A stretch of 64,000 nucleotides of DNA from NCBI GenBank assembly GCA_026002995.1, contig BPGK01000001.1, forward strand, positions 2,293,988-2,357,987. Reading direction: 5' to 3'. Under the pieces are notes generated by a model, which was given only the letters and a program-made list of their open reading frames with translations, searched no databases and had not been told where the DNA came from. Source of the DNA: Gaiellaceae bacterium (lineage in GTDB: Bacteria > Actinomycetota > Thermoleophilia > Gaiellales > Gaiellaceae). Of this stretch, positions 14,153 to 48,520 are shown piece after piece. The position numbers were made by a program, and so were the translations under genes. Position 1 is the first letter of the stretch. Each line of letters begins with the position of its first letter.

Positions 14153-15512
14153 TCCCCTGCGGGTCGAACGCGTCCTTGATGCGGCGCATGAGCTCGACGC
14201 CGTCCTCCCCGTGCTCGAGCGGCAGGAACTTCGACTTCCCGTAGCCCACCCCGTGCTCGCCGGTACAGGTGCCGCCGACCGCGATCGCACGCTCGGCGAT
14301 CCCGTCGGCGAGCCGACGGACGGTCTCGAGCTCCTCCGGCCGCTCGGGATCGACGAGGAAGCAGACGTGGAAGTTCCCGTCGCCGACGTGGCCGACGATC
14401 GGGGCGACGAGGCCGGCGGCATCGATCTCCGCGCGCGCCTGTGCAACGCACCCGGCGAGCTCGGAGACGGGGACGCACACGTCGGTGATGTAACCCCGCG
14501 ACCCGGGACGAAGCGCGAGCGCGGCCTCGTACGCCTGGTGGCGAGCCTCCCACAGCTTCCGCCGCTCGTCCTCGCTCGTCGCCCAGCGGACGCCGTCCGC
14601 GCCGCGCGCCTGCGCGAGCGCCGCGACCTCCTCTGCCTGAGCAGCGACCTCCGAGGCGCTGCCGTGGAACTCGAGGAAGAGCGTCGGCGCAACGGGGTAG
14701 TCGAGTCCCGAGCGGCGGTTGATCGCGTCCATCTGCACGTCGTCGAGGAGCTCGATCCGCGCCACGGGGATGCCGAGCTGGATCGCCTCGATGACACAGG
14801 CGACGGCAGCGTCGAGCGTCGGAAACGAGGCGACCGCGGCCGAGATCGCTTCCGGCGTCGGGTAGACGCGGAGCGTCGCCTCCACGACGATGCCGAGGGT
14901 TCCCTCCGCGCCGACGAAGAGCCGGGTCAGGTCGTAGCCCGCCGACGACTTCCGCGCGCGCGAGCGGGTTCGCACGACGCGCCCGTCGGCCGTCACGACG
15001 ACGAGCGAGAGGACGTTGTCCCGCATCGCCCCGTAGCGCACGGTGGTCGTCCCGGACGCCCCGGTACTCACCATCCCGCCGATCGTCGCATCGGCCCCGG
15101 GATCGACCGGGAAGAAAACACCCTCGGGCCGCAGCCGCGCGTCGAGCTGCTTCCGGGTCACGCCCGCCTGCACGGTGACGTCGAGATCCTCGACGCTCAG
15201 GCGCAGGATCCGGTCGAGCCTCGTCAGGTCGACGCAGACGCCGCCTGCGAGCGGGACGACCTGTCCCTCGAGCGACGTGCCTGCCCCGAAGGGAACGATC
15301 GGCACTCGGTGCGCCCGGCAGAGCTCGACGACGGCGACGACATCCTCGGTCGACCCCGGGAAGACGACGAGATCCGGCTCGCCGCCGCGGTGATACGACT
15401 CGCCGATCGCGTGCTGGGCGCGAACGGCTTCGCTGGCGACGACGTGCTCCGGGCCGAGCGCTGCGGTGAGCTCAGCCGCAGCGAGCTCCACTGCTGCTCG
15501 CGTCACGCTCAC
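14115..15512 (-). CDS. FAD-linked oxidase (GlcD / D-lactate dehydrogenase-like)
   Basis: The C-terminal 465 aa of composite ORF 14115..16565. GTG at 15512 gives a GTGA overlap with the upstream stop. FAD_binding_4 motifs are present ([28 protein letters not shown]), and the C-terminal end reads [11 protein letters not shown]...[10 protein letters not shown]. Confidence 0.9.
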
Positions 15513-16681
15513 CAGTCTCCCACGCTCCCGTCGCGGTAGAAGACGCGTTGCGGCAGCTCCTGCTCGAAGGGGTGCGCCGCGACCGCCTCGAGGTCGACCT
15601 CGATGCCGAGCCCCGGCCGCTCGCTCGGGCCGACGAGCATGCCGTTCCGATCGAGCGCGTGCGAGTCGAAAACGACGTCCGAGCGCCACGGCACGTCGTC
15701 GGTGACCGCTTCGCAGATGACGTACGAGGGCGTCGCGAGGCCGAGCTCGATCGAGGCGGCCGTGCTCACGGGGCCCTGCGGATTGTGGGGCGCAAGCGCG
15801 ACGCGGAAGACCTCGGCGAGCGCCGCTATTCGGCGCCCCTCGCTCAGGCCGCCGCAGTGGGTGAGGTCGGGCTGCACGACGCTGCAGCCGCCGCGTGAGA
15901 GGAGCTCGTGGAAGGCGTGGATGCCCACCAGGCGCTCCCCCGAGGCGATCGGCGTCGAGACCGAGCGTTGGATGGCAGCGAGGTCGTCCGGGCGCTCGGG
16001 CCAGCACGGCTCCTCCAGCCAGTAGAGGCTGTACGGCTCGAGGGCGGCGGCGAAGCGATGGCCCATGCGGGGGCTCGGTCTCGCGTGGCAGTCGACCATA
16101 AGGTCGATCTCCTCGCCCACCGCCTCGCGCATCGCGGCCACGCAGCGCTCGGCGTGCCGGATCGGGGCCAGGCCCTCGATCGGCATCGTCGGCGGCACGG
16201 CCATCGTCTTGAAGGCCGTGAATCCCCGTTCCACCATCGCCTGCGCGAGCTCGGCGAACCGCTGCGGCTCGTCGGACTCGTAGAAGTCCTCCATCCTGCC
16301 GCCGCCGAGATGGCCGTAGAGGCGGACGTGGTCGCGCACCGGGCCTCCCCAAAGCCGGTGGCAGGGGACGCCGTGCACCTTTCCGAGGATGTCCCAGAGC
16401 GCGATGTCGACCCCCGAGATCGCAGTCCCCCGGACGATGTCGTTGCCGTGCCAGAAGTGCTGCCGGAACATCATCTGCCAGAGGTGCTCGATCCGGGTCG
16501 GGTCCTCGCCGACGATGAGCTCGGCGAGGTCCTCGATCGCGCCGACGACCGCCCGCGTGTGCCACTCGAGCGTCGCCTCGCCCCAGCCGACGAGCCCGGG
16601 CTCGTCGGTGCGCACGCAGACGATCACCCAGTTGCGCATCCGGGCGTTGCAGACGTGCGCCTCGACGGCGGTGATCCTCAT
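15509..16681 (-). CDS. Enolase-superfamily enzyme, D-galactonate-dehydratase-like (MR subgroup)
   Basis: ATG at 16681 (residue 83 of ORF 15509..16927). [38 protein letters not shown]. Metal ligands DCHARP / LEEP / ASGERL, then [12 protein letters not shown] and APHNPQGP. Confidence 0.9.
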
Positions 16682-18051
16682 CGGGCGACCTGCTCGAGGA
16701 GCCGCGCCGACTCGTCGATCACGCGCTCCACCTCGCCCCGGTCGACGTTCGAGTTGGTGATGCCGTACGCCCAGCGGTAGCGGTCCTGGTCGAGGATCTC
16801 GTCGAGCGGCACGCCAGCGACGAGGTCGAGGTCCTCGCTCGCGGGCAGGTAGCCCGCGTAGTCGTTGCAGTAGCCGAGGACGTGGGTGACGGCGAACGGG
16901 CTGCGCGCGCGGATCCGTCGCCCGCACTCGTTGAAGAGCTCGAACGGGTTCGCGGCGATCGCCGTCTCGCCGATCGCGAGCGCCTGCAGCTCGACCTCGA
17001 CGGGCACCTCGGCTCGGCGGCTCATGTCGGCGTAGAAGACGAGCGCGCTGCGCTGGTAGAGGGCAGGAAACTGCTGGGCGGAGGTGGCCGTATGAACTCC
17101 CTCCGGCCAGGCCTCGGGGAACGCGGGCTCGGGCTCAGCGGCGAGCTCGGCCAGCTTCGCCTCCACCTCGGCGAGCGGGTACGGCGCGCGGCGCCGACGG
17201 AGCTCGAGGATCGTAGCCGCCGAGGCGAGGCGGGCGGACGCGCGCGTCTCGATCTCCTCCAGCACGCCGACCGCAGCCTCGCCCAGCGCGCGCCCGAGCT
17301 CGTCCCGCTCCTCGTAGGAGTGCGGCCGCGCCTCCCAGTTGCCGAACCAGAAGTCCCAAGCCGCGACGTCGCCGCCACAGCCCTGGAGGAAGACGCACTC
17401 GACCCCGGGCAGCGCGGCGCGCACCGTGTCCCGGAGAGGCCCGGGGAAGTCCGCGTTCCAGAGCAGCGTCTCGCCGCCGATGGTCGTCGCGTGGCAGGCG
17501 AAGCTGACGACGGCCGCGAGCGGCCGACCGTCCGCCCGGTCGACGCGCAGCACCGGCAGCGCCCGGTCGACCTCGCGCGTCCGGTCGACGCGGTTGACGG
17601 TGATCTCGGGTGCCGTCCCGAGCCCCCATCCCACCCGTGCCGGGACCCGCTGGCGCCAGGCGGCGTAGACGGCGCCTGCGAGCTGGTCGGCGACGAGCTC
17701 CGCGTAGCGGGCGAACTCGGGAGCGTCGCGCAGCCCGGCGACGGTCGAGCCGCGCGAGAGGCTGGGCGCGCTGTGGTTGTGGGACGCGTTCACGAGCACC
17801 GCCTCGGGGGGAATCCCGGTCAGCTCGCCGGCGCGACGCCGGACGGCGAGCGTCAGCTCGCGGCCGGCGAAGACGAGGTCGACGGCGATGATCGCGAGCG
17901 CGGTCTCACCGTCACAGAGGACGAGCGCATGGCCGAGCATCGGATCGTGGATCCCGGTCGCGAGCCCCGAGCGGGCCGACCAGCAGCCGTGCGGGAGCCC
18001 GCAGGGCGGGGTGACGTCGACGCGGGCAATGCCGGCGGTGAGCGTGCTCAT
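16678..18051 (-). CDS. Neutral/alkaline ceramidase-like amidohydrolase family protein
   Basis: 457 aa. The N-terminus [19 protein letters not shown]...[10 protein letters not shown]...ASHNHSAP is typical of the neutral ceramidase N-terminal domain family. ATGA overlap with the downstream dehydratase gene. Confidence 0.7.
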
Positions 18052-18118
18052 GGCTCCTCCTTCACAGTCTGCGGATCGGCTCCTCGCACGTCTGCGGTCT
18101 CCTCGTGGATGCGGCCCG

Positions 18119-19141
18119 TCAGTCGAGCTCGGAGCGGTCGGCCTCGCGCGCGACGACGGCGACGCAGTCGCCCTGCGTCGTCGGCGCGATGGCGCGGATG
18201 GTGCAGACGATGCCCGCCGTCGAGGCCCGGACGAGCTCGGGCTCCCGATCGGGGCGCTCCAGGAAGAGCAGACGCCCGACCGGGTCGCCCACTTCGACCC
18301 GATCGCCGAGATCGACGAGCGCTTCCCATATGCCGGACTCGGGGGCGAGCAGGTAGTTCTCGAGCTCCGTCGCCATCAGCAGGCGCTGCTCCGGAAGCCC
18401 GAGGGACGCGCGCGTGGCGACCTCGCCGGCGAGCACGCCTTCGTGGCGCAGGACGTTGCGGAGCCCGCTCGCAGCGAGGCGGTGCAACGCAGCGGTCACG
18501 TGCCCGCCGCCACCGAGCTCGGCCGAGGCGACCACCTTGCCCTGCCGCTCCGCCTCGCCGACGAGGAGCCCCGTTCCGGCGATGTCGATGTAGACGGCGC
18601 ACCAGTCCGTGTTCCACGCATACATCGCGGCGACCATGCGTCGGCGCTGACCGGGATCCTCGACCCAGTGCATCTCGGCCCAGGGGAGGTGCATCCCCGA
18701 GCGCCCGCCCGAGTGGATGTCGACGACGACGTCAGCGAGCGGAAAGAGGACGGTGGAGAAGAAGTGCGCGAGCTGCTCGTCCGGGCTTCCATCGGGCGAC
18801 CCGGGGAAGGAGCGGTTCAGGTTCGCGCCCGACGGCCACAGTCGCGTGAACGCACGAGCGGCGTCCATCGACGCGCACGGAACGATGATGAGCCTCCCCG
18901 GGACCTCCTCGGGCGTCACCTCCCGAGCGAGCCCGAGCGCGGCGACCTGCCCCTCGGGCTCGTCGCCGTGGACGCCCCCGACGACGAGCGCCGTCGGCCC
19001 GTCGCCGCCGCGAACCGTCACAATCGGAACGACGGTGCTCGCCCACCCCGCCGTGTTCGAGGAGCGCGGGACGTGCAAGGCGCCGACCTGCTTCCCCGGA
19101 GCGTCGAGGTCGATGGTGCAGCGAACCGGCGACTCGGCCAT
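18119..19141 (-). CDS. Succinylglutamate desuccinylase/aspartoacylase (AstE/AspA, M14-like) family deacylase
   Basis: 340 aa. The zinc-site pattern [10 protein letters not shown]...NLNRSFPG...DIHSGG is present. Paralog of 21670..22695. Confidence 0.85.
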
Positions 19142-19158: not shown

Positions 19159-19191
19159 GATTGTTGACAATCTCGCTATAGTCAACAATCG
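19159..19191. promoter_or_regulatory. Two 12-bp boxes (ATTGTTGACAAT, ATAGTCAACAAT) 18 bp apart; candidate GntR operator
   Basis: The boxes are at 19160-19171 and 19178-19189 in the 88-bp divergent intergenic region. The same boxes with the same 18-bp spacing recur at 31407-31436, in front of the GntR gene. Each is a GT-N2-AC core palindrome typical of GntR/FadR sites. Confidence 0.5.
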
Positions 19192-19229: not shown

Positions 19230-20363
19230 GTGAAGATCACCGACGTCGAAGCGATCGTCCTCCGCCAGCCGGCCGTGGACGAGGGGATCGCGGACGGTAG
19301 TCAGGACGACCTGATCGTCCTCGTGCACACGGACGAGGGTCTGACCGGCATCGGTGAGGTCGACTCGGCGCCCGAGGTCGCGGCCGCGCTCATCCGCGGG
19401 AACGGCTCACACGCCGTCGCGATCGGCCTGCGCGAGCTGCTCGTCGGCGAGGACCCGCTCGACATCGAGCGGCTGTGGCAGAAGATGTACCGCGGGACGA
19501 TCTACGTCGGCCGTCGCGGGATCACCGTCCACGCCATCAGCGGGATCGACATCGCGCTCTGGGACCTCAAGGGCAAGGCGCTCGGTCGCCCCGTGTGCGA
19601 GCTCATCGGGGAGCCGAAGCGCGATCGCGTGCGCGCGTACGCCTCGCGGCTCATGCCCGAGACTCCCGAGGAGACCCGAGAGGCCGTCGCAGAGCTTCGC
19701 GCGCAGGGGTTCACGGCCGTGAAGCTCGGCTGGGGTCCGCTCGGAAAGGACCTCGGCCACGACCTCGCGCTCGCCGCGGCAGCGCGCGAGGCGGGAGGTG
19801 ACGGCGTCGACATCCTCATCGACGCCGGGCTCGGCTACGGAGACGACGTCGAGCGGGCGACCTACGTGGCTCGTGGGCTCGAAGAGCTCGGGGTCCGCTG
19901 GCTCGAAGAGCCATTCGAGCCCGACGAGTACGAGGCATACGCCGCGCTCGCGGACAGCGTCGAGATCCCAGTCGCGGCGGGTGAGCAAGACGCAACCAGG
20001 TGGGGCTTCCGCGAGCTCCTCGAGCGCGGGCACGTGGACATCGTCCAGCCGGATGTCACCCGCTGCGGTGGGATCAGCGAGCTCCTACGCATCGCCGACC
20101 TCGCGGCCGCACACGGCGTCCCGACCGTCCCGCACGCCTGGAAGAGCGGCATCATCAAGGCGGCGTCACTGCATGTCAACGCCGTCCTGCCGGAGGCGCT
20201 CTACCAGGAGTACTGCGTGGCCGAGACCCCGATCAACACCGAGCTCACGGTCGAGCGGCTGCCGATCGAGGCCGACGGCACCGTGGCCGTCCCCACCGGG
20301 CCTGGACTCGGAGTCGAGCTCGACTTCGACGTCGTCGAGCGGTTGCGGGTGGACGGGAGATGA
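19230..20363 (+). CDS. Enolase-superfamily enzyme (mandelate racemase/muconate lactonizing family, MR-like subgroup)
   Basis: 377 aa. MKITDVEAIVLRQP...VLVHTDEGLTGIGE. Ligands IDAGLGY / LEEPF / AAGEQD, then QPDVTRCGGISE and PHAWKSG. Confidence 0.9.
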   Translation: MKITDVEAIVLRQPAVDEGIADGSQDDLIVLVHTDEGLTGIGEVDSAPEVAAALIRGNGSHAVAIGLRELLVGEDPLDIERLWQKMYRGTIYVGRRGITVHAISGIDIALWDLKGKALGRPVCELIGEPKRDRVRAYASRLMPETPEETREAVAELRAQGFTAVKLGWGPLGKDLGHDLALAAAAREAGGDGVDILIDAGLGYGDDVERATYVARGLEELGVRWLEEPFEPDEYEAYAALADSVEIPVAAGEQDATRWGFRELLERGHVDIVQPDVTRCGGISELLRIADLAAAHGVPTVPHAWKSGIIKAASLHVNAVLPEALYQEYCVAETPINTELTVERLPIEADGTVAVPTGPGLGVELDFDVVERLRVDGR

Positions 20364-21673
20364 GCCAGGCGCCCCCCGAGAGCTCGGCGCACGCGCTGGC
20401 TCTGCGAGCGGCGGCCGCGATCCCCGGCGGCGTGAACAGCGGCCAGCGGCGCGTCCCGGGGCTCGAGGAGCTCGTCGTTGTCGCGACGAGCGGCGCGACG
20501 TTCACCGACGCCGACGGTCGGACGTACACCGACTACCACGCGGCCTTTGGGCCTCCGCTCCTCGGCCACAACGACCCGGACGTCGACGCCGCCGTCGCGG
20601 CGACGGCCGCGGAGCTCGGGAATATGGGCGTCGGCGTCACGCCGATCGAGATCGAGCTCGCCGAGCGGCTCGTCGCCTGCGTGCCCTCGCTCGAGAAGGT
20701 CCTGCTGACGGCGACTGGGAGCGAGGCGACCTTTCACGCGCTACGGCTTGCGCGCGTCGCCACGGGGCGTCGGCACGTGGTCAAGTTCCAGGGCTGCTAC
20801 CACGGCTGGCACGACTCGGTGGCGATGAACGTGATCTCGCCGCCCGAGCGTGTCGGCACGAAGGACCCTCTCTCCCAGGGGATCCTCCCGGAAGTGCTCG
20901 ACGCCACGATCGTCCTCCCGTTCAATGACGCGGACGCCGTCGAGCGCGCCCTTGCAGAGCACGACGTCGCGGCGGTCATCCTCGAGCCCATCCCGCACAA
21001 CATCGGTGCCGTGCTCCCGAAGCCGGGTTTCCTCGAGCGCCTCCGTGAGCTCACCGCGAGAAGCGGCACGGTGCTCGTCTTCGACGAGGTGATCACCGGC
21101 TTCCGCCACGGGCTCGGCGGCTACCAGGAGGTCGCGGGCGTGACTCCCGATCTGACGACTCTCGGCAAGGCGATGGCGAACGGGTGGCCCATCTCGGCGC
21201 TCGGCGGCCGTGCGGAGCTCATGGAGCTCTTCTCGACGACGCCGGGGCGGCCCGCCTTCTTCGCCGGCACCTTCAACGGCCACCCTGCCACCGCAGCCGC
21301 CGCGCTCGCGACGATCGAGAAGCTCGAGCGGGAGCCCGTGCATGAGCACGTCTTCCGGCTCGGCGAGCGGGCGCGCACGGAGCTGCAGGCCCTCTACGAC
21401 CGCCTCGGCGTTCCCGCCGTCGTCAGCGGCTTCGGGTCGGTCTTCGTCTCGTACTTCCTCGCCGGCCCCGTCGAGCGCTACGAGGACCTGCTCGCGAACG
21501 ACACCGAGCTCTTCACGGGGTACCGGCGCGAGCTCATGCGCCACGGAGTCTTCGAACTTCCGCTCAACCTCAAGCGCAGCCACGTCTCCTACGCCCATAC
21601 GGATGCGGACATCGACCGCCTGCTCGAGGCGACCGAGGCCGCTGTCACGTACGTGCTCGAGGCCCGCTCGTGA
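20360..21673 (+). CDS. Class-III (GSA-aminomutase-like) PLP aminotransferase
   Basis: The ATG at 20360 gives an ATGA overlap. 437 aa with TGSEATFHALRLAR, VFDEVITGFR and TLGKAMANG (PLP lysine). Confidence 0.9.
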   Translation: MSQAPPESSAHALALRAAAAIPGGVNSGQRRVPGLEELVVVATSGATFTDADGRTYTDYHAAFGPPLLGHNDPDVDAAVAATAAELGNMGVGVTPIEIELAERLVACVPSLEKVLLTATGSEATFHALRLARVATGRRHVVKFQGCYHGWHDSVAMNVISPPERVGTKDPLSQGILPEVLDATIVLPFNDADAVERALAEHDVAAVILEPIPHNIGAVLPKPGFLERLRELTARSGTVLVFDEVITGFRHGLGGYQEVAGVTPDLTTLGKAMANGWPISALGGRAELMELFSTTPGRPAFFAGTFNGHPATAAAALATIEKLEREPVHEHVFRLGERARTELQALYDRLGVPAVVSGFGSVFVSYFLAGPVERYEDLLANDTELFTGYRRELMRHGVFELPLNLKRSHVSYAHTDADIDRLLEATEAAVTYVLEARS

Positions 21674-22695
21674 CGGCGCTCTCGCCGGTCTCCTGCTCGA
21701 TCGACCTCGAGGCGCCCGGGAAGCGCATCGGCCACCTCGCGCTCCCGAAGATCACGAACACGGCCGGCTGGGCGAGCACGTTCATCCACCTCGGATGCGT
21801 CGTGAACGGTGACGGCCCGACTGTGCTCGTGCTCGCCGGAAACCACGGCGACGAGTACGAGGGACAGGTCGCGGCGCTGCGCCTGCTCCAGGAGCTCCGG
21901 CCCGAGCAGGTCTCCGGTCGTGTGATCGTGATCCCGGTGCTCTCCCCCGCCGCCTCGAAGGCGAACACGCGCAACTGGCCGTCCGGCGCGAACTTCAACC
22001 GCTCGTTCCCCGGCCGCCCCGACGGACCGCCGAACGAGCAGCTCGCCCACTACCTCTCGACTGTCCTCTTTCCCGAAGCCGACGTCGTCATCGACATGCA
22101 CTCCGGAGGCCGCAGTGCCTGGTTCGTTCCGTGCTCGCACATGCACGTCGTCGAGGATCCCGTGCAGCGTCGGGCCATGCTCGAGGGCATGGAGGCGTGG
22201 CTCAGCGACTTCCACTACCTGTACATCGACGTCAACGGCTCCGGGCTCCTGCCGGTCGAAGCCGAGCGCCAGGGGAAGCTCGTCATCACGACCGAGCTCG
22301 GTGGGGGCGGTCGCGTGCCTGCGCCGATCCACCGCCTCGCCTGGAACGGGCTGCTGAACGTCCTCCGCCACGTCGGCGTCCTCGATGGCGAGGCGCAGAC
22401 GCGCGAGTCGCTCGGACTGCCGCCCGCAATCATCCTCGACGGGCGCGACCCGGCAAACATCGTGCTGGCGCCCGAAGACGGCCTCTTCGAAGCGCTCCTC
22501 GAGCCGGGCGACCCGGTGGAGGAAGGGCAGATCGTCGGGCGCCTGTGGTTCATCGATCGCCCCGACCGCCCGCCACTCGAGATTCCCGCCCCGCTCGGCG
22601 GATACGTCGCCGCGACGAAGGCGATCCCCGTCACCGAGCAGGGCGACTGCGTGTTCTGCCTCGGGCAGCCGATCGAGCGAGCGGCGCTCCTCTGA
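21670..22695 (+). CDS. AstE/AspA-family deacylase, second paralog
   Basis: 341 aa with AGNHGDEYEG...NFNRSFPG...DMHSGG. Colinear similarity to 18119..19141 runs along the whole length. GTGA overlap with the aminotransferase gene. Confidence 0.85.
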   Translation: MTALSPVSCSIDLEAPGKRIGHLALPKITNTAGWASTFIHLGCVVNGDGPTVLVLAGNHGDEYEGQVAALRLLQELRPEQVSGRVIVIPVLSPAASKANTRNWPSGANFNRSFPGRPDGPPNEQLAHYLSTVLFPEADVVIDMHSGGRSAWFVPCSHMHVVEDPVQRRAMLEGMEAWLSDFHYLYIDVNGSGLLPVEAERQGKLVITTELGGGGRVPAPIHRLAWNGLLNVLRHVGVLDGEAQTRESLGLPPAIILDGRDPANIVLAPEDGLFEALLEPGDPVEEGQIVGRLWFIDRPDRPPLEIPAPLGGYVAATKAIPVTEQGDCVFCLGQPIERAALL

Positions 22696-22705
22696 GGTGA
22701 GGATC

Positions 22706-33173: not shown

Positions 33174-34174
33174 CCGACGACGGCGTCCTCCTCCGCACCG
33201 TCGGGCTGAAGAAGCACTTCCCGGTGCGAAAAGGGGTCTTCGGTCGGGTCTCCGGGCACTTGCAGGCGGTCGACGGCGTCGACCTCGAGATCGCCCAAGG
33301 GGAGACGCTCGGCCTCGTCGGCGAGTCGGGCTGCGGGAAGTCGACGCTCGGACGGGTCGTGCTCCGGCTGCTCGAGCCGACCGCAGGCGAGGTCTGGTTC
33401 GACGGCACCGAGCTGACGCGGCTCTCGGCCCGCCAGCTCAAGCCCTACCGGCGCGACATGCAGATCGTCTTCCAGGACTCGGTGGGCTCGCTCGACCCTC
33501 GCATGCGCGTCCGCGAGATCGTCGCCGAGGGGCTCGAGATCCACGGGGTGGCCTCGAAGGACGAGCGAGAGGCGCGCGTCCTCGACACGCTCGAGCGGGT
33601 CGGGCTGAGCCGCGACGTCGCCGGCCGCTACCCGCACCAGTTCAGCGGCGGCCAGCGACAGCGCATCGGCCTCGCGCGAGCCCTCGCCCTGCAGCCGCGC
33701 TTCGTCGTCGCCGACGAGCCCGTCTCCGCGCTCGACGTCTCCATCCAGTCGCAGGTACTCAACCTGCTCGTCGAGCTCAAGCGGGAGTTCGACCTCACGT
33801 ACCTCTTCGTCGCCCACGACCTCGCCGTCGTCGGCTACATCTCCGATCGCATCGCGGTCATGTACCTCGGGAAGGTCGTAGAGCTCGCGCCCGCGCAAGA
33901 GCTGTTCGCGCGACCGCTGCACCCGTACACGATGGCCCTCCTCTCGGCGAACCCGGAACCGATCCCCGGCCGCAAGCGCCAGCGGATCGTCCTCACGGGC
34001 GACGTGCCGAGCCCGATCGACCCGCCCTCGGGCTGCCGCTTCCGCACCCGCTGCCCGATCGCGCAGCCGATCTGCGCCGAGCAGGAGCCGCCGCTCGCCG
34101 ACCACGGCCAGGGCCACCGCGCGGCCTGCCACTTCCCCGGCACGGAGATCGCGGTCACCTCATCGGCAGCATGA
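33170..34174 (+). CDS. Peptide-type ABC transporter ATP-binding protein (DppF/OppF-like)
   Basis: GTG at 33170 (GTGA overlap). [29 protein letters not shown], and the C-terminal CRFRTRCP motif. Confidence 0.92.
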
Positions 34175-40857: not shown

Positions 40858-41714
40858 CTCTTCCACCTCCTCGGACGAAGCCGAGGCCGATGTGCGACTG
40901 GCGGCGGCTGGGATGGCTGCGGCTCCGGGCGGCGCAGCGCGCGAGGCTCGGGTCGGAGCTGGCGTACGAGCCTCCGCGCAGCACCCGCTCGCCACCGTCG
41001 GCCGACGGACCTGGGTAGGACCCGTACCAACTCCCGGTCCACTCCCACACGTTCCTCACCACGTCGAGCAGACCGTACGGGTTGGCGCCGTCCGGATGCG
41101 ACCCCACCGGCTCCGTCGCACCCCTCTTGATCCCCCGCCCGGTGAGGGCGCGGACGAGCTCGGAGCTCCCGGCGGCCGGCGCGGCGGCGGGGCGGAGGCC
41201 GATGTACGGGTCGCGGGCCGCTCGGGCCGTCGCCGTAGACGGCCGCGATCCACTCGCCGACGTTCCCGGCGAGATCGAGCACGCCGAGCGGCGAGGCGCC
41301 GGCCCTGAGCGAGCCGACCACCGGGCGCGGGCGCCCGATCGCCGCCGTGAAGACGACACGGGTCGCATCCGGCAGCTCGTCTCCCCCAGGGCGAGAGCCG
41401 GTCGTCCCCGCCACGCGGGGCGTGCTCCCACTCGTCCTCGGTCGGAAGTCGCGCCTCCACCCAGGCACAGAACGCGGCCGCGTCGTCCCAGGTCACGTAG
41501 CCGACCGGCACGTCGTCCTCGCCGACGCGTGCCCAGGCTCGACCGGTCGCGGCGGCGAAGCGACCGTGCGCGTTCGTCACCGGCGTGCGGGCGATGCGGT
41601 AGGGCCCGAGAGTCACGAGCCGCCGCGACTGCTAGTCGTCGTCGGGCGGGAACACCCTCCCGGATCGCTCCCCATGAGGAACGGCCCGGCGGGTACGAAG
41701 CGCCACTCGATCAC
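40850..41714 (-). pseudogene. FGE/SUMF1 (formylglycine-generating-enzyme-like) domain gene, multiply frameshifted with an in-frame TAG
   Basis: The domain is spread over all three minus-strand frames. VIEWRFVPAGPFLMGSDPGG starts at GTG 41714. VFPPDDD-TAG-QSRRLVTLGPYRIARTPVTN...VTWDDAAAFCAWVEARLPTEDEWEHA follows in a second frame. DELPDA...SPLGVLDLAGNVGEW follows in another. NPYGLLDVVRNVWEWTGSWY...RVLRGGSY ends at 40850. Confidence 0.6.
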
Positions 41715-43597
41715 GCGGGGATCACCGGCAGGACGACGACGCCCCCGTGAACCGTGTTCTCCGCCCGGACCGTGTGCGTGTGCCGGCCGATCGGCTCGCC
41801 CGTGTTCGGGTTCCGCTCGAGCCGCGGGAAGTTCGACGACGAGATGTCGACCCGGATCCGGTGCCCGGCCGCGAACAGGTTCGAGGTCGGCGGGAGCGAG
41901 ATCGTCACCTCGACCTCCTCCCCGGGCTCGAGCAGCTCCTCCGACTCGAAGCCGTTCCGGTAGCGGCAGCGGATGACGGAGTCGTTGAGGAGCATGTCGT
42001 AGCCATCCGGGTAGTCCTCGTTCGGCGGATAGACGTCGATCAGCTTGGCCGTGAAGTCGGTGTCCGGGGCGCTCGACGAGACCCGGAGGCGGACGGTCAC
42101 GCGACCGGTCACCTCGACCGGCTCCGCGAGCGGCTCGGTCTGGTAGACGAGGACGTCGGGACGCTCGGAGAGACGGCGCCCGGGCCGCCGCGCGGTGAAG
42201 AACTCCTCCCGCTCGACCTGGTCCGCGGGGCCCGGGGTCATGATGTTCCGGAGCAGGAGCGCCGGGTTGAGGAGGCGCATCCACGCGGGCTCCATCCCCT
42301 CGCCCTCGGGCGGCAGCTCGCCGACGGCGCAGTAGAGGCCGCCAATCGTCGGTACCGGGTCCTCGGGGTCGTAGACGAAGGTCCGCGGCGGATCGCCGGC
42401 GGGCGGTGGCAGCGGCCTGAGCGTCCCGTCCCCGTGCAGGTGGAGCGTCCTCTCGACCGCGCGCGCGAGCGGCCACTCGTGCTCCTCCCGCCAGCGGCCG
42501 CCGTGGTCGAGCTTGCCCTCGGCGGTCTTCCGCCCGCTGCCGCCGCCCATGACGAAGATGCGGATCGGCGCCTCGTCGTGCGACGCGCCCGGGGCGTCGT
42601 CCCGGAGCCAGCGGTCGAAGAACGCGAGCTGCTCCTCGAAGTAACGGCGTACGCCCCACACGGAGTCGGGCCCGAAGTCCACGTCGAGCGTCCACGACGC
42701 GTCACCTCGCATCCCGACGTGGCTCCAGGGGCCGACGACGAGCCGCTGCGGCGCGCTGTTCCTCTCGGCCATGGCCGCGAAGTACTCCGTGCCCGAATGC
42801 GGGAAGCCGTCGAACCAGCCCGTCGAGATCGTCGCCGGGATGTCCGCGTGCTCGTGCCAGAAGCGCGTGAAGTCGTTCTCCTTGCGTGCCCAGAACTCGT
42901 CGTAGGCGCCGCGCGTGCAGTAGTCCTCGAGCGTGCGGTCGAGCGCGGGGACGTGGCGGAGCGAGAGCTCGCCCTCGTGCCACGGCCACCCCCACATGAG
43001 CTGCCGGAGGTTGCGCAGGTCGTTCCACACCTCCTCCTGCTTGGCGGGATCGGCCTGCACCTCTTGGGCATCCGCGGCATGGATGAAGAGCGCCCAGAAC
43101 ATGTGGAGCTGCATCACGCCGCCCTCGCGCGTCTGGTGGTGGTACATGCAGGTCGGGGCGACGTCTGGCCAGATGGCGGTCAGGTGCGGGGGGCGCTCGA
43201 GCGCAGTCCGAATCTGCGTGATCCCCGCGTACGAGCTCCCGACCATGCCCGTGCGCCCGTTGCTCCACGGCTGAGCGGCGATCCACTCGATCGTGTCGTA
43301 GCCGTCCCTACCGGTGTGTGGCGTCACGACGTGGAAGTACTCCTTCGTTCCCTCGGACCGGTGGCGGTCGCGCATGTCCTGGAGCACGACGACGTAGCCG
43401 TGCGGGACGAAGAAGTCCGCGATCTCGACGTAGCGCCGCTCGCTCTTGTCGTAGGGCGTGATGCAGACGATGGTGGGAAAACGGCCGTCGACGAGCTCTC
43501 CGTCGCGCGCCGGGCGGTGGATGTCCGTCGCGAGCCGTATCCCGTCGCGCATGGGGACCATCACGTCCTTTGCGACGACGATGCCGTAAGGCGTCAC
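41711..43597 (-). CDS. CocE/NonD-family hydrolase, second paralog
   Basis: 628 aa. MRDGIRLATDIHRP, ITPYDK, GMVGSSYAG (nucleophile elbow), and the C-terminal PTSNLFAAGHRIRVDISSSNFPR. Confidence 0.9.
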   Translation of the reverse strand: MTPYGIVVAKDVMVPMRDGIRLATDIHRPARDGELVDGRFPTIVCITPYDKSERRYVEIADFFVPHGYVVVLQDMRDRHRSEGTKEYFHVVTPHTGRDGYDTIEWIAAQPWSNGRTGMVGSSYAGITQIRTALERPPHLTAIWPDVAPTCMYHHQTREGGVMQLHMFWALFIHAADAQEVQADPAKQEEVWNDLRNLRQLMWGWPWHEGELSLRHVPALDRTLEDYCTRGAYDEFWARKENDFTRFWHEHADIPATISTGWFDGFPHSGTEYFAAMAERNSAPQRLVVGPWSHVGMRGDASWTLDVDFGPDSVWGVRRYFEEQLAFFDRWLRDDAPGASHDEAPIRIFVMGGGSGRKTAEGKLDHGGRWREEHEWPLARAVERTLHLHGDGTLRPLPPPAGDPPRTFVYDPEDPVPTIGGLYCAVGELPPEGEGMEPAWMRLLNPALLLRNIMTPGPADQVEREEFFTARRPGRRLSERPDVLVYQTEPLAEPVEVTGRVTVRLRVSSSAPDTDFTAKLIDVYPPNEDYPDGYDMLLNDSVIRCRYRNGFESEELLEPGEEVEVTISLPPTSNLFAAGHRIRVDISSSNFPRLERNPNTGEPIGRHTHTVRAENTVHGGVVVLPVIPA

Positions 43598-45660: not shown

Positions 45661-47375
45661 CGGGCGACCTCCGCCCGCAGCTTGCGCGTCTCGCTCTCGT
45701 CGACCCGCCGGGCTTCCATGTCGACCGCAACCCGATACACCGCCCGTGCGCGCTCGACGCTCACCTTCCCGTCGACGACGTCCCGGAGGACGAGCTCCGG
45801 GTCGCGCTCGTGCGGAGGGCCGTAGCCGCCGCCGCCACACGTCCTGTAGCTGACGAGCTCGCCGGCCTGCACCTCGACGGTGGACTTGGCGCCAAGCCGG
45901 CGCTCCCCCTCCGCGGTCTGGAGGACGTACTCGGCCGGTCGACCGGGGAGGCCCCCGAACAGCCCCCACGGCCCCTCCTTGTCACGGTCGGCGAGCACGG
46001 AGAACGTCACCGGCCCGCGCGGGAAGCGGTAGTCCTTGCGCAGCCCGAGACCGCCGCGGTACCGACCTGCGCCCTCCGAGTCCTCGACGAGCTCCAGCCG
46101 CTCGACGAGCACCGGGTAGCCGCGCTCGGTCTCCTCGACGGGGGCGTTCTCGGTGTTCTGGCCGTGCGCCTGCACGGCGTCCGGGCCGTCGCTTCGGAAC
46201 CGGCCGCCGTAGCCGCCGCCGAAGGTCTCGAGGAAGCACCAGTACCCGAGCTCGGGGTCGACGCCGCCGAAGCCCGCGTGACACATCATCCCTTTCGTTC
46301 CCGCCGGCACGCCGTGCGGGAGCGCCTCGGAGAGCGCGCGGAAGATCACCTCGACGAGCCTGGTGTGCGTCTCCCAGCCGCCGACCACCGGCGCCGGCCA
46401 CTCCGCGTGCGCGATCGTGCCTGGCCTCGTGTCTACCTGCAGCAGCCGGTAGAAGCCGTCGTTCACCGGCAGGTCGGGATCGATGAGGCACTTGAGCGCG
46501 TACGCGCAGGCGGAGTACGTCTGCGCGTAGGTCGAATTCACCGGCGCTCGGCGCTGCGGCTCCGAGTCCGTGATGTCGAAGCGGACGCCGTCGGCGCGCA
46601 GCTCGACGCGGGCGTGCAGGCGCACGCGCTCGTCGCTGTAGCCGTCGGAGTCGACGTAGCCCTCCGCCTCGAAGCTCCCGTGCGGGAGGCGCGCGAGCTC
46701 CGCGCGCGTGCGCCGCTCGGTGTAGTCGAGGAGCTCGTCGATCGCCGCGCGCACGGTGCCGAGGCCGTGGCGCTCGAGGAGCGCGCCGACGCGTCGGATC
46801 CCGGTCGCGTTCGCCGCGACCTGAGCGCGGAGGTCGCCGCCCGTCTCGTGTTTCGACCGAATCTGAGCCAGGACGAGCTTCCAGACGTCGGGGACGAGCG
46901 CTCCGGCCTCGACGACCTTGACCGGCGGGATGATCAGGCCCTCTTGGAACACCTCGCGGAAGGCGCCGATCGAGGCCGGCGCGCCCCCTCCGACGTCGAC
47001 GTGGTGCGCGAGGTTGGCGACGTAGCCGACGAGCTCGCCGTCCCAGAAGACCGGCGAGACGAGGCTCACGTCGTTCAGGTGCACGCCGCTCGGGAACGGG
47101 TCGTTCGTGATGATCGCGTCGCCGGGGCCGATGTTCTCGGCGCCGTACTCGGTCACCGCGCGCGGGACCTGCTGCACCATCGACCCGAGGTGCACGGGCT
47201 GGGTGAAGCCCTGAGCGATGCAGCGCAGGTCGGCGTCGAAGAAGGCGCACGAGAAGTCCGCGCGCGTCTTGATGTTCGTCGAGTAGGCGGCGCGCCGCAG
47301 GGATACGACCATCTCGTCGGTCGCCGCAACGAGCGCGTTCCGGACGACCTCGAACGTGATCGGGTCGAGGCTCAT
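45657..47375 (-). CDS. hyuB: Hydantoinase B/oxoprolinase-type subunit (HyuB family)
   Basis: ATG at 47375. MSLDPITFEVVRNALVAATDEM..., NDPF..G.HLND, and GGGGYGPPHERDPELVLRDV at the C-terminus. Confidence 0.92.
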   Translation of the reverse strand: MSLDPITFEVVRNALVAATDEMVVSLRRAAYSTNIKTRADFSCAFFDADLRCIAQGFTQPVHLGSMVQQVPRAVTEYGAENIGPGDAIITNDPFPSGVHLNDVSLVSPVFWDGELVGYVANLAHHVDVGGGAPASIGAFREVFQEGLIIPPVKVVEAGALVPDVWKLVLAQIRSKHETGGDLRAQVAANATGIRRVGALLERHGLGTVRAAIDELLDYTERRTRAELARLPHGSFEAEGYVDSDGYSDERVRLHARVELRADGVRFDITDSEPQRRAPVNSTYAQTYSACAYALKCLIDPDLPVNDGFYRLLQVDTRPGTIAHAEWPAPVVGGWETHTRLVEVIFRALSEALPHGVPAGTKGMMCHAGFGGVDPELGYWCFLETFGGGYGGRFRSDGPDAVQAHGQNTENAPVEETERGYPVLVERLELVEDSEGAGRYRGGLGLRKDYRFPRGPVTFSVLADRDKEGPWGLFGGLPGRPAEYVLQTAEGERRLGAKSTVEVQAGELVSYRTCGGGGYGPPHERDPELVLRDVVDGKVSVERARAVYRVAVDMEARRVDESETRKLRAEVAR

Positions 47376-48520
47376 CGCTCCTCCCTTCGCTTCTCGACGG
47401 CGCGGTAGGCGCCGTGCGACTCGTACCGCTCCCGTGCTCTCGCGACCGCTTCGTGGTCGAGCTCGATACCGAGTCCCGGCCCGTTCGGTAGACGCAGTGG
47501 CCCCACGGACGCAACCTCCGCGGGCGCCGCGAGGATCGACTCCGCCAGCAGCTGGTGCATCGCCTGGTTGCCGAGCGTCAGGTTCGGGATGCAGGAGACC
47601 GCCTGCGCGCCCGCGAGCGTCGAGAGCGCCGTCTCCATACAGGCGTGCCTGTTCACGAGCACGCCGTAGGTCTCTGCGAGGGCGGCGAGCTGGCGCAGCC
47701 GCCACAGGCCCCCGGTCTCGTGGTGGCCTACGACGACGACGTCGGCCGCCTCGTGCTCGAGCACGTGTCGGAGTTCGCCGGTCGTGTAGACGGCCTGATC
47801 AGCCGCGACCTTGACATCGACCTTGCGTCGGACGAAAGCGAGCCCCGCGACGTCGTCGGCACGGACCGGCTGCTCGACCCAGTCGAGGCCGTAGGGCTCG
47901 AGCGCGCGGATGCGCTCCACCGCCTCCGCAGGGCTCCACGCCTCGTTCGCGTCGACGCGCAGGAGCGGTCCCGGGCCGACCGCATCCCGCACCGCCGCGA
48001 CGATCTCCTCGTCGCCCGCGTCGGCCCTGCCGACCTTGCAGTAGACGACACGCGCGCCCTCTCCCGCGAGGCGCGCGGCGTCCGCCGCCACCTCGTCAGG
48101 GGTCTCGCCCTGTGGAAACGCCATCAGATCGACCTCGTCGCGGACACGCCCGCCCAGGAAGGCGCTCACCGGCAGGTCGTGCGCCTTGCCCCACGCATCC
48201 CAGCAGGCGACCTCGATTCCGGCGACGATCTGGTTCGTGAAGCGCGGCGTGAACCGCCAGCGTCCCTCGCGCCAGAGGGCGCCGAGGATCGCCTCGACGT
48301 CTCCCGGCGAGCGGCCGACGAAGCGCTCCGCGAGCAAGCGGCCGTAGGCCTGGACGGCTGCCGGTTCCTCGCAGATCGACTCGCCGTAGCCCTCGATGCC
48401 CTCGTCGGTCTCGACCGTCCACAGCACGAGGTTGGCGCCGAGCTGGCGGCCCGAGCTCCAGTGGAACGGCCGCGCGAGCGGGAGCGCGAGCGGCGTCGCG
48501 TGGACGGCGACGACCCTCAC
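47372..48520 (-). CDS. Enolase-superfamily enzyme (MR/MLE family; atypical active-site strand)
   Basis: A GTG start at 48520 (GTGA overlap) is preferred over 48541. VDANEAW, VEQPV, AADQAV. YCKVG sits where the KxK motif is expected, and GHHETGGL sits where the strand-6 Lys/Asp is expected. Confidence 0.85.
   Translation of the reverse strand: MRVVAVHATPLALPLARPFHWSSGRQLGANLVLWTVETDEGIEGYGESICEEPAAVQAYGRLLAERFVGRSPGDVEAILGALWREGRWRFTPRFTNQIVAGIEVACWDAWGKAHDLPVSAFLGGRVRDEVDLMAFPQGETPDEVAADAARLAGEGARVVYCKVGRADAGDEEIVAAVRDAVGPGPLLRVDANEAWSPAEAVERIRALEPYGLDWVEQPVRADDVAGLAFVRRKVDVKVAADQAVYTTGELRHVLEHEAADVVVVGHHETGGLWRLRQLAALAETYGVLVNRHACMETALSTLAGAQAVSCIPNLTLGNQAMHQLLAESILAAPAEVASVGPLRLPNGPGLGIELDHEAVARARERYESHGAYRAVEKRREER

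Follow-up and report, generated by a model that had tools for sequence, protein, structure and literature searches.

A 64-kb stretch of the Gaiellaceae bacterium contig BPGK01000001.1 (hereafter the window; about 71% G+C) carries four genes of the enolase superfamily, ENO1 to ENO4, set among deacylases, other hydrolases, pyridoxal-phosphate (PLP) enzymes and transporters. We consider this span best explained as a catabolic neighbourhood on the chromosome, made up of two gene sets under separate regulation rather than one pathway, a reading that we hold, together with the enzyme roles proposed below, with somewhat better than even confidence. Set 1 (about 14.1-38.1 kb; 23 genes in four transcription units that form two divergent pairs) contains ENO1, ENO2 and ENO3 and would be one regulon of the GntR/FCD-family repressor encoded at 31530-32159. 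Set 2 (38.2-54.9 kb) contains ENO4 and has its own GntR regulator. The region consists of catabolic operons from known families and is not a new kind of system. What is new is most likely a conserved regulon with three divergent enolase-superfamily enzymes. Also new are an active-site variant with Tyr for Lys, accompanied by a Glu, for which the searches made found no solved structure or assigned function, and a natural context for the family of the structure 2pgw.

Two regulators and a shared operator-like site

Genes were called from third-position G+C and checked with Pfam and NCBIfam, the Pfam-scanned genes spanning 11.6-58.3 kb of the window. Gene order and 4-bp overlaps delimited five transcription units (Table 1). 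Unit 1, on the reverse strand, runs from the deacylase AstE1 through a ceramidase-like gene and ENO1 to an oxidase that binds flavin adenine dinucleotide (FAD). Divergent from it is unit 2, with ENO2, a class III aminotransferase, the deacylase AstE2 and an MFS transporter. Unit 3, again on the reverse strand, comprises ENO3, a binding protein, two permeases, a D-aminoacylase-like gene and a threonine-aldolase-like gene; the divergent unit 4 begins with the GntR gene and continues with two ATPases, a CocE-like hydrolase, a class I/II PLP enzyme and an MFS transporter. Unit 5, also on the reverse strand, reads RraA-like, HyuA2, HyuB2, DAO-family oxidase, ENO4, HyuB1, HyuA1, CocE-like hydrolase, a broken FGE-sulfatase-domain gene, M20 deacylase and AMP-ligase, and is divergent from a second GntR gene.

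Both divergent promoter regions of set 1, ENO1/ENO2 and ENO3/GntR, carry the same 12-bp palindrome, ATTGTYRACAAT, twice each. The 88-bp spacer between AstE1 and ENO2 contains it as an A+T-rich inverted repeat; the inverted repeats in the ENO3 spacer were missed by the repeat tool and were found by searching with the ENO1/ENO2 spacer motif. Allowing at most two mismatches, exactly four sites occur in the window, at 19160, 19178, 31407 and 31425, each pair 18 bp apart. With at most three mismatches there are eight matches against 1.8 expected, a number reached in none of 100 shuffles. A palindrome with a GT-N2-AC core is typical of sites bound by GntR-family proteins, and a common conserved palindromic operator in the promoters of the member genes, by which a GntR/FadR-type regulon is recognised, is what the ENO1/ENO2 and ENO3 promoters display.

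The site is conserved in other genomes. The motif AT[GA]GTTGACAAT lies about 44 bp upstream of the ENO3 start in all 71 loci with enough upstream sequence, and ATTGTCGACAAT stands at about -62 in most of them. Across 1.35 Mb of loci the strict motif occurs 133 times: the spacer between GntR and ENO3 accounts for 120 sites, 12 others adjoin a GntR-like gene, and the last one immediately precedes an ENO2 ortholog in a locus (L067) that also holds the ENO3 spacer pair. The tandem site precedes ENO2 in five of five other genomes (L067 and L100-L103); in the latter four the pair occurs just once in each 15-kb locus, 60-80 bp ahead of ENO2. Given this common operator-like site and the sole regulator gene within units 1-4, the GntR/FCD gene, we infer that the approximately 23 genes at 14.1-38.1 kb are most likely one GntR-type regulon. 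The GntR/FCD protein is predicted to bind the site, as its gene is adjacent and the palindrome is of the type expected for its family.

The sequence-only reading of this DNA had treated the span as a single supercluster. We find at least two regulons instead, as the operator-like site was not found at the ENO4 operon, where a separate GntR gene is present. The spacer between the ENO4 operon and this second GntR gene (window 53990-54200) shares ATATGCGATTT with the orthologous spacer of another genome (L002 4920-5020), which makes ATATGCGATTT a weak candidate, from two sequences, for a distinct operator of the ENO4 operon. For ENO1, ENO2 and ENO3, the earlier idea that the genes belong together is borne out by conserved synteny and the common conserved site.

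To describe this synteny, one genome per species was scanned with a narrower alignment (a wider one was too divergent), yielding 80 ENO3 loci, dominated by Gaiellaceae. Dozens of species in this family have the arrangement. The window proteins were mapped by tblastn onto the 45 loci with at least 9 kb on both sides. The ABC ATPases and the first permease were present in 45 of these 45 loci, the binding protein, second permease and D-aminoacylase-like gene in 43, the GntR regulator and the aldolase in 42, the CocE-like hydrolase in 41 and the class I/II PLP enzyme in 40. Another enolase-superfamily gene lay within 10 kb in 23 of the 45. The flanks of the ENO3 module vary by species and hold the ENO2 operon, an ENO1-like and ceramidase-like pair, or Hyu genes. 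In four further genomes fetched through their ENO2 orthologs (L100-L103), the divergent ENO1/ENO2 pair is directly beside the tail of the ENO3 operon, and on a 436-kb contig (L002) the ENO4 operon, kept as a unit, lies about 7 kb from the ENO3 module. Because the flanks vary while the ENO1/ENO2, ENO3 and ENO4 units recur together, the modules are distinct units with a tendency to remain neighbours. That the clustering exceeds chance is based on this conserved synteny and the shared operator-like site, not on a formal clustering statistic.

Close homologs of ENO2, ENO3 and ENO4 (65-92% identity) come nearly all from metagenome-assembled genomes of Gaiella, Gaiellaceae and Thermoleophilia, the ENO2 orthologs across Gaiellaceae being 76-92% identical; one ENO4 copy, on a 52-kb Joint Genome Institute contig, is 100% identical. 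A plasmid or mobile-element origin was considered and rejected: no near-identical plasmid DNA was found, and the contigs that bear orthologous loci reach 3.3 Mb, with three labelled as chromosomes. Within the window, exactly four genes have the Pfam domains MR_MLE_N and MR_MLE_C, in agreement with the number and coordinates first read from the sequence, and tblastn of all four proteins against the whole 64 kb found no fifth copy. Since their pairwise identity is only 29-35%, ENO1-ENO4 are ancient paralogs, and the same values rule out a recent tandem duplication.

Active sites of the four enolase-superfamily proteins

All four proteins have the two-domain enolase architecture, a capping domain and a modified TIM barrel (Pfam; AlphaFold for ENO3 and ENO4), and all four carry the three carboxylate metal ligands at the ends of strands 3, 4 and 5. 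For ENO1 and ENO2 these were placed by alignment to DgoD and 3sjn; in ENO3 and ENO4 they are invariant in the family alignments and sit at strand ends in the AlphaFold models. In each operon, the enolase-superfamily enzyme would provide the Mg-assisted removal of a proton beside a carboxylate, a step that the other enzymes cannot do.

ENO3 has its nearest structures among the N-succinyl-Arg/Lys racemase 2p88, 2qde, 4dye/2oqh, the dipeptide epimerases 3jva and 1jpm, and 2pgw (about 1e-48, 29-32% identity), and its model superposes on enolase-superfamily structures with template-modelling (TM) scores of 0.85-0.89. Members of the muconate-lactonising-enzyme (MLE) subgroup carry catalytic lysines at the ends of strands 2 and 6 (10.1101/2022.03.03.481873, Glasner and Raushel laboratories). 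ENO3 keeps the strand-2 pair, K159-x-K161, and has Tyr264 aligned with the catalytic strand-6 Lys. In the AlphaFold model (predicted local distance difference test, pLDDT, 91.6), strand 6 comprises residues 260-263, so that Tyr264 sits at its C-terminal end; neither the strand-6 Asp nor the strand-7 His of the mandelate-racemase (MR) dyad is present. These features are family-wide: [VI]YPSEAGGL is found in 117 of 120 orthologs and ELKLKVG in 119 of 120. A D318-T-H320 motif after strand 8 is also kept in the family. Dipeptide epimerases have DxD at this place, where it binds the ammonium group of the dipeptide; the comparison with the Bacillus enzyme was made by eye and is a weak one.

The substitution in strand 6 is not confined to ENO3. 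About 140 full-length representatives of the nearest sequence space were compared at strand 6: 58 carry Lys there, 35 Asp, 24 Tyr and 6 Gly. With 24 of these representatives carrying Tyr, the Tyr type therefore appears to be a recurrent variant, often with a Glu three residues later. No solved structure with a strand-6 Tyr was found among the alignments shown for ENO3 and for one Tyr-type relative, which have Lys throughout and Asp in 4dye, and a fold search with ENO3 returned nothing closer than 32% identity. ENO3 reaches no NCBIfam epimerase or racemase cutoff, and named Tyr-type members, for example in Nocardioides soli, carry generic annotations only.

ENO4 is closest to 2pgw, a protein from Sinorhizobium meliloti pSymA (6e-69). 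Compared with 2pgw and a Paracoccus homolog, it has the same set of a YxK motif, a strand-6 Gly, a Glu two residues before GG and a strand-7 His, and these motifs hold in 120 homologs. Lys162 is kept, Tyr160 stands in place of the first Lys, and in the AlphaFold model (pLDDT 92.9) Gly265 is at the C-terminal end of strand 6 and His292 at the end of strand 7. Of the MR dyad, the His is thus present (His292) and its Asp partner is replaced by Gly265. Lys162 and His292 occupy what we take to be the positions of the two bases of mandelate racemase.

The same preprint noted that residue 266 of the Amycolatopsis N-succinylamino-acid racemase, two before GG, is Lys or Arg in all characterised racemase and epimerase families, and proposed it as a predictor (10.1101/2022.03.03.481873). 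The racemase and epimerase families of the superfamily are those of N-succinylamino-acid racemase, dipeptide epimerase, hydroxyproline-betaine epimerase and mandelate racemase. The corresponding residues, E267 in ENO3 and E268 in ENO4, are Glu and invariant in both families. Because of this Glu and the missing strand-6 Lys, canonical two-base racemisation by ENO3 and ENO4 appears weakened, and one-base chemistry, namely elimination or cycloisomerisation, is favoured for ENO3; the gene context of its relatives leans weakly the same way.

The sequence-only reading had pointed to the same motifs, VVYPSEAGGL in ENO3 and VVGHHETGGL and YCK in ENO4. All three are present, the AlphaFold models place Tyr264 and Gly265 at the strand-6 end chosen by eye, and both alignments and modelled strand positions confirm that the two proteins depart from the canonical MLE and MR catalytic sets. 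Calling them an unassigned subgroup went too far, as both fall among MLE-subgroup structures, the ENO4 motifs are shared with 2pgw, and the Tyr recurs as counted above. Its placement of ENO1 and ENO2 with the MR-subgroup dehydratases, from QPD...CGG and a downstream His, agrees with our PDB and DgoD alignments.

In ENO1, the Asp (strand 6) and His (strand 7) of the MR dyad are present as QPD...APH, aligned to DgoD and 3rr1, and its nearest solved relatives are galactonate-dehydratase-like proteins (3rr1, 4e-62). Alignment with Escherichia coli DgoD runs end to end at 34% identity, with DxH, EEP, GER, QPD and APH all matched, and the galactonate dehydratase model NF010624 is barely passed (317.6 against a cutoff of 311); 'position 266' is His. 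Every catalytic motif is therefore that of DgoD, but the surroundings differ from those of the dgo operon. The dgo partners 2-keto-3-deoxygalactonate kinase (dgoK), 2-keto-3-deoxy-6-phosphogalactonate (KDPGal) aldolase (dgoA) and galactonate transporter (dgoT) were not found in the ENO1 operon, in orthologous operons or among the Pfam-scanned genes, and the neighbours of ENO1 are a ceramidase-like protein, a DoeB-like deacylase and a GlcD-like oxidase. The closest plasmid-borne relatives, at 43-45% identity, adjoin TRAP transporters and FadR/GntR regulators. ENO1, with the Asp-His dyad and the DxH His of galactonate dehydratase, would most likely dehydrate a hydroxy acid, and the name galactonate dehydratase is probably a mis-annotation.

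The ceramidase-like gene, whose product has no PDB sequence match, overlaps the ENO1 start by 4 bp, an arrangement called translational coupling, and directly precedes ENO1 in three other genomes (L101-L103) as well. Two of these have an extra CN_hydrolase (nitrilase/amidase-family) gene between AstE1 and the ceramidase-like gene (L101 4985-5881, L102 4978-5874); it is absent from the window, where the gap is 67 bp. Fused gene calls appear in long-read assemblies, joining the ceramidase-like gene and ENO1 (L103 2444-4987, 847 aa) or AstE and the ceramidase-like gene (L100 4458-6911, 817 aa), and probably reflect indel errors where the genes overlap by 4 bp, not true fusions.

ENO2 matches 3sjn, a Shewanella pealeana protein of unassigned function, over its full length (2e-89) and keeps its strand-2 Lys, QPD and PH motifs, the MR dyad being QPD...VPH. 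It reaches no NCBIfam cutoff. Its residue at 'position 266' is Arg, and because of this both dehydration and epimerisation could be carried out by ENO2, with its Lys and Asp-His dyad. The gene partners differ between the two groups: ENO2 is paired with a class III aminotransferase, a DoeB-like deacylase and an MFS transporter, whereas gammaproteobacterial relatives (40-45% identity) have a BCCT transporter and a divergent second MR/MLE gene next to them. Such genes of the ENO2/3sjn family are found on plasmids of Pseudomonas sp. MPC6 (L086 6379-10260) and Psychrobacter urativorans (L087 6666-10646), the second MR/MLE gene being about 27% identical to ENO2. This conserved trio of BCCT transporter, 3sjn-type gene and second MR/MLE gene may help to assign the 3sjn family.

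Proposed roles and competing accounts

Under the two-set reading, the substrates of set 1 would be imported by the Opp/Dpp-type ABC system and two MFS carriers. Amide and ester bonds would be hydrolysed by the two DoeB-like deacylases, the ceramidase-like protein, the D-aminoacylase-family enzyme and a CocE-like hydrolase, and three PLP enzymes, the flavin 2-hydroxyacid oxidase and the three enolase-superfamily enzymes would act on the products. Within this set, the link with the Opp/Dpp-type importer is the strongest functional clue for the ENO3 module. A 57%-identical ENO3 relative from a non-Gaiellaceae metagenome has an Opp/Dpp-type ABC system directly after it, in a different gene order. 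The module is consistent with degradation of a small N-acyl or peptide-like acid that contains a D- or beta-hydroxy-alpha-amino acid unit, and also with that of N-acetylated amino-sugar acids. ENO3 would then most likely catalyse a one-base reaction on such an acid delivered by the adjacent importer, with Lys161 as the sole canonical base and Tyr264 and Glu267 in place of Lys and Lys/Arg: a beta-elimination or cycloisomerisation with Tyr as the acid. As a separate observation, a second Amidohydro_3 paralog, about 30% identical to the D-aminoacylase-like gene, occurs at the far end of the GntR-side operon in 32 of the 45 loci; the window has no copy there.

Set 2 would comprise two ATP-dependent lactam- or hydantoin-opening pairs, a sarcosine-oxidase-like oxidase, ENO4, the second CocE-like hydrolase, the M20 deacylase and an acyl-CoA-type ligase. 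ENO4 may take as substrate an amino-acid-type product of lactam opening with an N-alkyl or N-methyl group, ahead of the neighbouring amine oxidase, so that the operon would be a route for a lactam or an N-alkyl amino acid, as its weak homologies suggest. Three alphaproteobacterial relatives of ENO4 and 2pgw have neighbours that handle N-methyl compounds or betaines: one is beside a betaine-type binding protein, an MttB-family methyltransferase, a creatinase-like peptidase and an Ldh_2 reductase, another beside a heterotetrameric sarcosine oxidase, and the third beside DmmA/DUF3445/PDR-type genes. A classical hydantoinase-carbamoylase-racemase arrangement was rejected for this operon, as the M20 enzyme matches ArgE/DapE models, not carbamoylase models. 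Guanitoxin-like biosynthesis, suggested by best matches to GntC, GntE and GntG, was likewise dismissed: only the cutoff of the broad GntG subfamily is exceeded, the genes in question are spread over three operons, and the hydroxylase, methyltransferase and kinase partners were not found with NCBIfam.

The proposal closest to the sequence-only reading is that ENO3, ENO4 or both are true racemases or epimerases, using Lys/Tyr or Lys/His as two bases to convert N-acyl amino acids or dipeptides between their D and L forms for the adjoining stereospecific deacylases and peptidases, for instance in scavenging cell-wall peptides. We regard this as possible and take it seriously, while doubting it. 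The setting speaks for it: the nearest solved relatives of ENO3 are 2p88, 3jva and 1jpm, in 43-45 of 45 genomes the ENO3 operon also encodes a D-aminoacylase-family enzyme and a peptide-type importer, Lys/Tyr base pairs work in other racemases, and ENO4 retains Lys162 and His292 at the modelled ends of strands 2 and 7. The catalytic residues speak against it, since both proteins lack the strand-6 Lys that defines the MLE subgroup and have Glu where characterised families have Lys or Arg, and ENO3 has DxH where dipeptide epimerases have DxD. Against it, too, is a Tyr/Glu-type relative of ENO3 in Nocardioides, which is flanked by a Gfo/Idh/MocA oxidoreductase and an aldehyde dehydrogenase in a sugar-acid-like oxidative layout that has an RraA-like gene upstream. 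That operon, in turn, supports an account that we judge unlikely, in which set 1 degrades sugar acids or amino-sugar acids such as N-acetylated 2-amino-aldonic acids from oxidised chitin. The enolases would be acid-sugar dehydratases, the D-aminoacylase-family and DoeB-like enzymes de-N-acetylases, and the threonine-aldolase-like enzyme would cleave a beta-hydroxy-alpha-amino acid. The galactonate dehydratase score and conserved DgoD residues of ENO1, the TRAP transporters and FadR/GntR regulators next to its closest plasmid-borne relatives, and a more distant match of the amidohydrolase to the carbohydrate (sugar-acid) de-N-acetylase OngB (PDB 9kb1) agree with this, as does the fact that FCD-type GntR regulators commonly sense carboxylates. 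However, Pfam found no sugar kinase, aldolase of the 2-keto-3-deoxygluconate or 2-keto-3-deoxy-6-phosphogluconate (KDG/KDPG) type, lactonase or glycoside hydrolase in set 1, ENO1 shares merely 34% identity with DgoD, the amidohydrolase is nearer to N-acyl-D-Glu deacylase than to OngB, and the class III aminotransferase and DoeB-like deacylases suggest diamino acids or amines.

These last enzymes resemble the final steps of ectoine breakdown and lead to another account, rather unlikely in our view, in which the region handles nitrogenous osmolytes and lactams instead of peptides: ectoine-type or N-acetyl-diaminobutyrate compounds, betaines, N-methyl amino acids, or hydantoin- and creatinine-like rings. 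The BCCT transporters beside ENO2 relatives, the betaine-transporter, MttB, sarcosine-oxidase and DmmA genes beside ENO4/2pgw relatives, and the two Hyu pairs and sarcosine-oxidase-like enzyme of the ENO4 operon itself fit this. Yet the Pfam-scanned window genes include neither an ectoine hydrolase (DoeA/M24) nor a BCCT transporter nor a betaine-type binding protein, the importer is of the peptide/opine type, and the contexts invoked belong to proteobacterial relatives at 37-45% identity. In addition, AstE1 and AstE2 score 256 and 257 bits on the DoeB model (TIGR02994, N-acetyl-L-2,4-diaminobutyrate deacetylase), short of its cutoff of 402.7. We think it quite improbable that the four enolase genes are functionally unrelated and that this part of the chromosome merely accumulates catabolic operons. 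The variable flanks of the ENO3 core, the separate regulator of the ENO4 operon and the age of the paralogs would fit such a view, but the identical tandem operator-like site at ENO1/ENO2 and ENO3, kept across genomes, leaves it viable only for ENO4 versus the others. A bolder form of our own proposal, which we offer tentatively and think unlikely to hold as a whole, is that ENO3 and its relatives (KxK, strand-6 Tyr, Glu three residues later, DxH) constitute a new isofunctional MLE-like family. They would not racemise; instead, N-acyl or peptidyl beta-hydroxy-alpha-amino acids from a dedicated Opp/Dpp-type importer would undergo a one-base beta-elimination (dehydration or deamination) in which Lys161 is the base and Tyr264 the acid. 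The 23-gene GntR regulon, with its three enolase paralogs, would be an undescribed route by which the abundant Gaiellaceae of soils take apart a complex N-acylated amino- or hydroxy-acid compound.

Several points weigh against the two-set reading and the roles assigned in it. The accessory enzymes are below NCBIfam equivalog cutoffs or match broad families only, so that they do not pin down a substrate, and the pairing of the GntR/FCD regulator with the operator-like site draws on gene adjacency. The 'position 266' rule is an empirical correlation taken from a preprint, and the AlphaFold output was used for strand positions only, not for side-chain geometry. Tyr can serve as a base in other enzymes, and ENO3 could still be a two-base epimerase. 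The contexts of the relatives, at 37-45% identity, are heterogeneous and may not transfer: besides the Nocardioides operon, another Tyr/Glu-type relative is among amidohydrolase, creatininase, amidase and a second MR/MLE gene, and Armatimonadota relatives of ENO3 (57%) have unrelated neighbours such as histidine kinases and a sulfotransferase, which give no functional clue. Of the function first proposed from sequence, D/L interconversion by ENO3 and ENO4, the deacylase and importer setting stands, and the loss of the strand-6 Lys together with the Glu counts against the reaction; D-amino acids or peptides as substrates are one option among several, the relatives' contexts pointing equally to organic acids, betaine-type or N-methyl compounds and amides.

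Comparison with known systems places the two-set reading in context. ENO3 resembles the enzymes of N-succinylamino-acid racemase and dipeptide epimerase operons (2p88; the L-Ala-D/L-Glu epimerase 1jpm/1tkk; Enterococcus 3jva) in fold, KxK motif, metal ligands and the GSxxE of strand 7, and is likewise beside deacylases and a peptide-type importer; it differs from them in Tyr264 for the strand-6 Lys, Glu267 for Lys/Arg and DxH for DxD. A non-canonical Tyr has a precedent in dehydration on the enolase fold, as a Tyr acts in proton transfer in the divergent galactarate dehydratase of Oceanobacillus iheyensis (2oqy/3hpf Y90F) and in D-mannonate dehydratases, and 3hpf, a Y90F mutant according to its PDB title, is among the structural neighbours of ENO3. 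In those enzymes, however, the Tyr comes from positions other than the strand-6 end, and the substrates are acid sugars. For 2pgw, a structural-genomics entry labelled 'putative muconate cycloisomerase', the active-site set is that of ENO4, but the neighbours are a betaine-type ABC binding protein, MttB, a creatinase-like peptidase and Ldh_2, in contrast to the two Hyu pairs and DAO-family oxidase around ENO4. In our literature search, papers naming 2PGW used it only as a structure-comparison example and no function was found; nor did we find a paper linking Gaiella with these enzymes. Expansions of enolase-superfamily paralogs, 4-75 copies and mostly MR-type, have been described in SAR202 Chloroflexota and read as use of chirally complex organic matter (Saw et al. 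2020, PMC6946804). There, too, many divergent paralogs occur in an abundant, hard-to-culture heterotroph, but as a genome-wide count without operon or regulon structure, whereas here four are clustered, three of them under one operator-like site, in a soil actinobacterial lineage.

Much of the enolase superfamily lacks an assigned function, and the best leads are altered catalytic residues in a well-defined, conserved context. The window offers three: the Tyr-for-Lys variant, a context for the orphan 2pgw, and a galactonate-dehydratase look-alike that automatic annotation would probably misname. The conserved operator-like site and its candidate regulator give an experimental handle, as an inducer would reveal the substrate. 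Gaiellaceae are widespread in soil metagenomes and poorly cultured, and a dedicated multi-enzyme scavenging regulon would inform on what they live on.

Gene inventory of the window

The enzyme inventory first drawn from the open reading frames was recovered with Pfam and NCBIfam. We found both AstE/AspA-type deacylases (57% mutual identity), both CocE/NonD hydrolases, an amidohydrolase of the D-aminoacylase family and an M20 deacylase. Also present are three aminotransferases (one class III and two class I/II), the threonine-aldolase-like lyase of the GntG family, and the peptide-type importer, which consists of five genes of the Opp/Dpp type. Beyond that inventory are two oxidases, one of the DAO family and one a GlcD-like FAD enzyme, together with two HyuA/HyuB pairs, an AMP-ligase and a ceramidase-like protein. 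Three MFS transporters and two GntR/FCD regulators are further additions, as are an RraA-like gene and an FGE-sulfatase-domain gene with a frameshift.

Table 1. Features of the two gene sets and the operator-like sites, by window position.
Feature	Position	Strand	Basis and remarks
FAD-linked oxidase, GlcD / D-2-hydroxyacid dehydrogenase-like, last gene of AstE1-CerN-ENO1 operon	14115..15491	-	Pfam FAD_binding_4 + FAD-oxidase_C; TIGR00387 glcD 364 bits < cutoff 568
ENO1, MR-subgroup enzyme with D-galactonate-dehydratase catalytic set	15509..16681	-	Pfam; PDB 3rr1 4e-62; NF010624
Ceramidase-like protein, putative amidase	16678..18051	-	Weak Pfam Ceramidase_alk N-terminal match, 36.8 bits
AstE/AspA-family deacylase 1 (AstE1), DoeB-like	18119..19141	-	Pfam AstE_AspA_cat; TIGR02994 256 bits < cutoff 402.7; 57% identical to AstE2
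Tandem operator-like palindromes ATTGTTGACAAT, 6 nt, ATAGTCAACAAT, between ENO1 and ENO2 operons	19160..19189	.	Motif search
ENO2, MR-subgroup enzyme, uncharacterised 3sjn family	19230..20363	+	Pfam; PDB 3sjn 2e-89
Class III (omega-type) aminotransferase	20360..21673	+	Pfam Aminotran_3; NCBIfam GSA-aminomutase subfamily 382 < cutoff 398
AstE/AspA-family deacylase 2 (AstE2), DoeB-like	21670..22695	+	AstE_AspA_cat; 57% identical to AstE1
MFS_3 transporter	22697..23956	+	Pfam
Threonine-aldolase-like PLP lyase (GntG family), last gene of ENO3 operon	23929..24975	-	Pfam Beta_elim_lyase; NF041359 318.6 vs cutoff 230; start re-set to 24975
D-aminoacylase-family amidohydrolase	24968..26572	-	Pfam Amidohydro_3; PDB 3gip (N-acyl-D-Glu deacylase) 6e-60, 1m7j (D-aminoacylase), 9kb1 (OngB)
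Two Opp/Dpp-type ABC permeases	26604-27494, 27524-28474	-	Pfam
SBP_bac_5 binding protein, peptide/nickel/opine-type	28551..30191	-	Pfam; no NCBIfam equivalog cutoff reached
ENO3, MLE-subgroup-like	30218..31375	-	K159-x-K161; D189/E215/D240; Tyr264; Glu267; D318-T-H320
Tandem operator-like palindromes ATTGTCAACTAT, 6 nt, ATTGTCAACAAT, between ENO3 and GntR gene	31407..31436	.	Motif search
GntR/FCD-family regulator	31530..32159	+	Pfam GntR + FCD
Two Opp/Dpp-type ABC ATPases	32160-33173, 33170-34174	+	Pfam
CocE/NonD (S15) serine hydrolase a	34171..35871	+	PDB cocaine esterase 1ju3 2e-106
Class I/II PLP enzyme, aminotransferase-like	35868..36968	+	Best NCBIfam match GntC 194 bits < cutoff 415
MFS transporter	36965..38140	+	Pfam
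AMP-dependent ligase, distal end of ENO4 operon	38168-39727	-	Pfam/NCBIfam
M20 ArgE/DapE-like deacylase, distal end of ENO4 operon	39712-40866	-	Pfam/NCBIfam
FGE-sulfatase-domain gene, split	40850..41616	-	Two overlapping frames 40850-41431, 41056-41616
CocE/NonD (S15) hydrolase b	41711..43597	-	34% identical to S15a
HyuA1 and HyuB1, ATP-dependent hydantoinase/oxoprolinase/caprolactamase-type	43594-45660, 45657-47375	-	Caprolactamase alpha 567, beta 302 bits, both < cutoff 1000
ENO4, 2pgw-like	47372..48520 (start alternative 48541)	-	Y160-x-K162; D190/E216/D241; Gly265; H266, H267, E268; His292
DAO-family FAD amine oxidase, monomeric sarcosine oxidase / N-methyltryptophan oxidase-like	48517..49707	-	NF008425 115 bits < cutoff 257
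HyuB2 and HyuA2, hydantoinase/lactamase-type	49691-51421, 51418-53394	-	38% and 47% identical to pair 1
RraA-like aldolase/decarboxylase-family gene, first of ENO4 operon	53478..54008	-	Pfam
Second GntR/FCD regulator, divergent from ENO4 operon	54189..54878	+	Pfam; orthologous arrangement in L002

The split FGE-sulfatase-domain gene is a frameshift, either a pseudogene or an assembly error; its orthologs in two other genomes (L002, L100) are intact, with 469-472 aa. Outside the two sets, the roughly 2.5 kb at window 9107-11612 hold short overlapping open reading frames (ORFs) only, and the codon-bias caller gave no confident gene there. On the forward strand, a full-length quinone-oxidoreductase-like gene (12367-13329) is followed by a short ORF with fragmentary zinc-dehydrogenase domains (13478-14152), possibly a truncated paralog. 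Just upstream of the region lies a gene, also on the forward strand (11612-12370), for a Nudix protein with a winged-helix domain of the NrtR type, a type of regulator of NAD metabolism.

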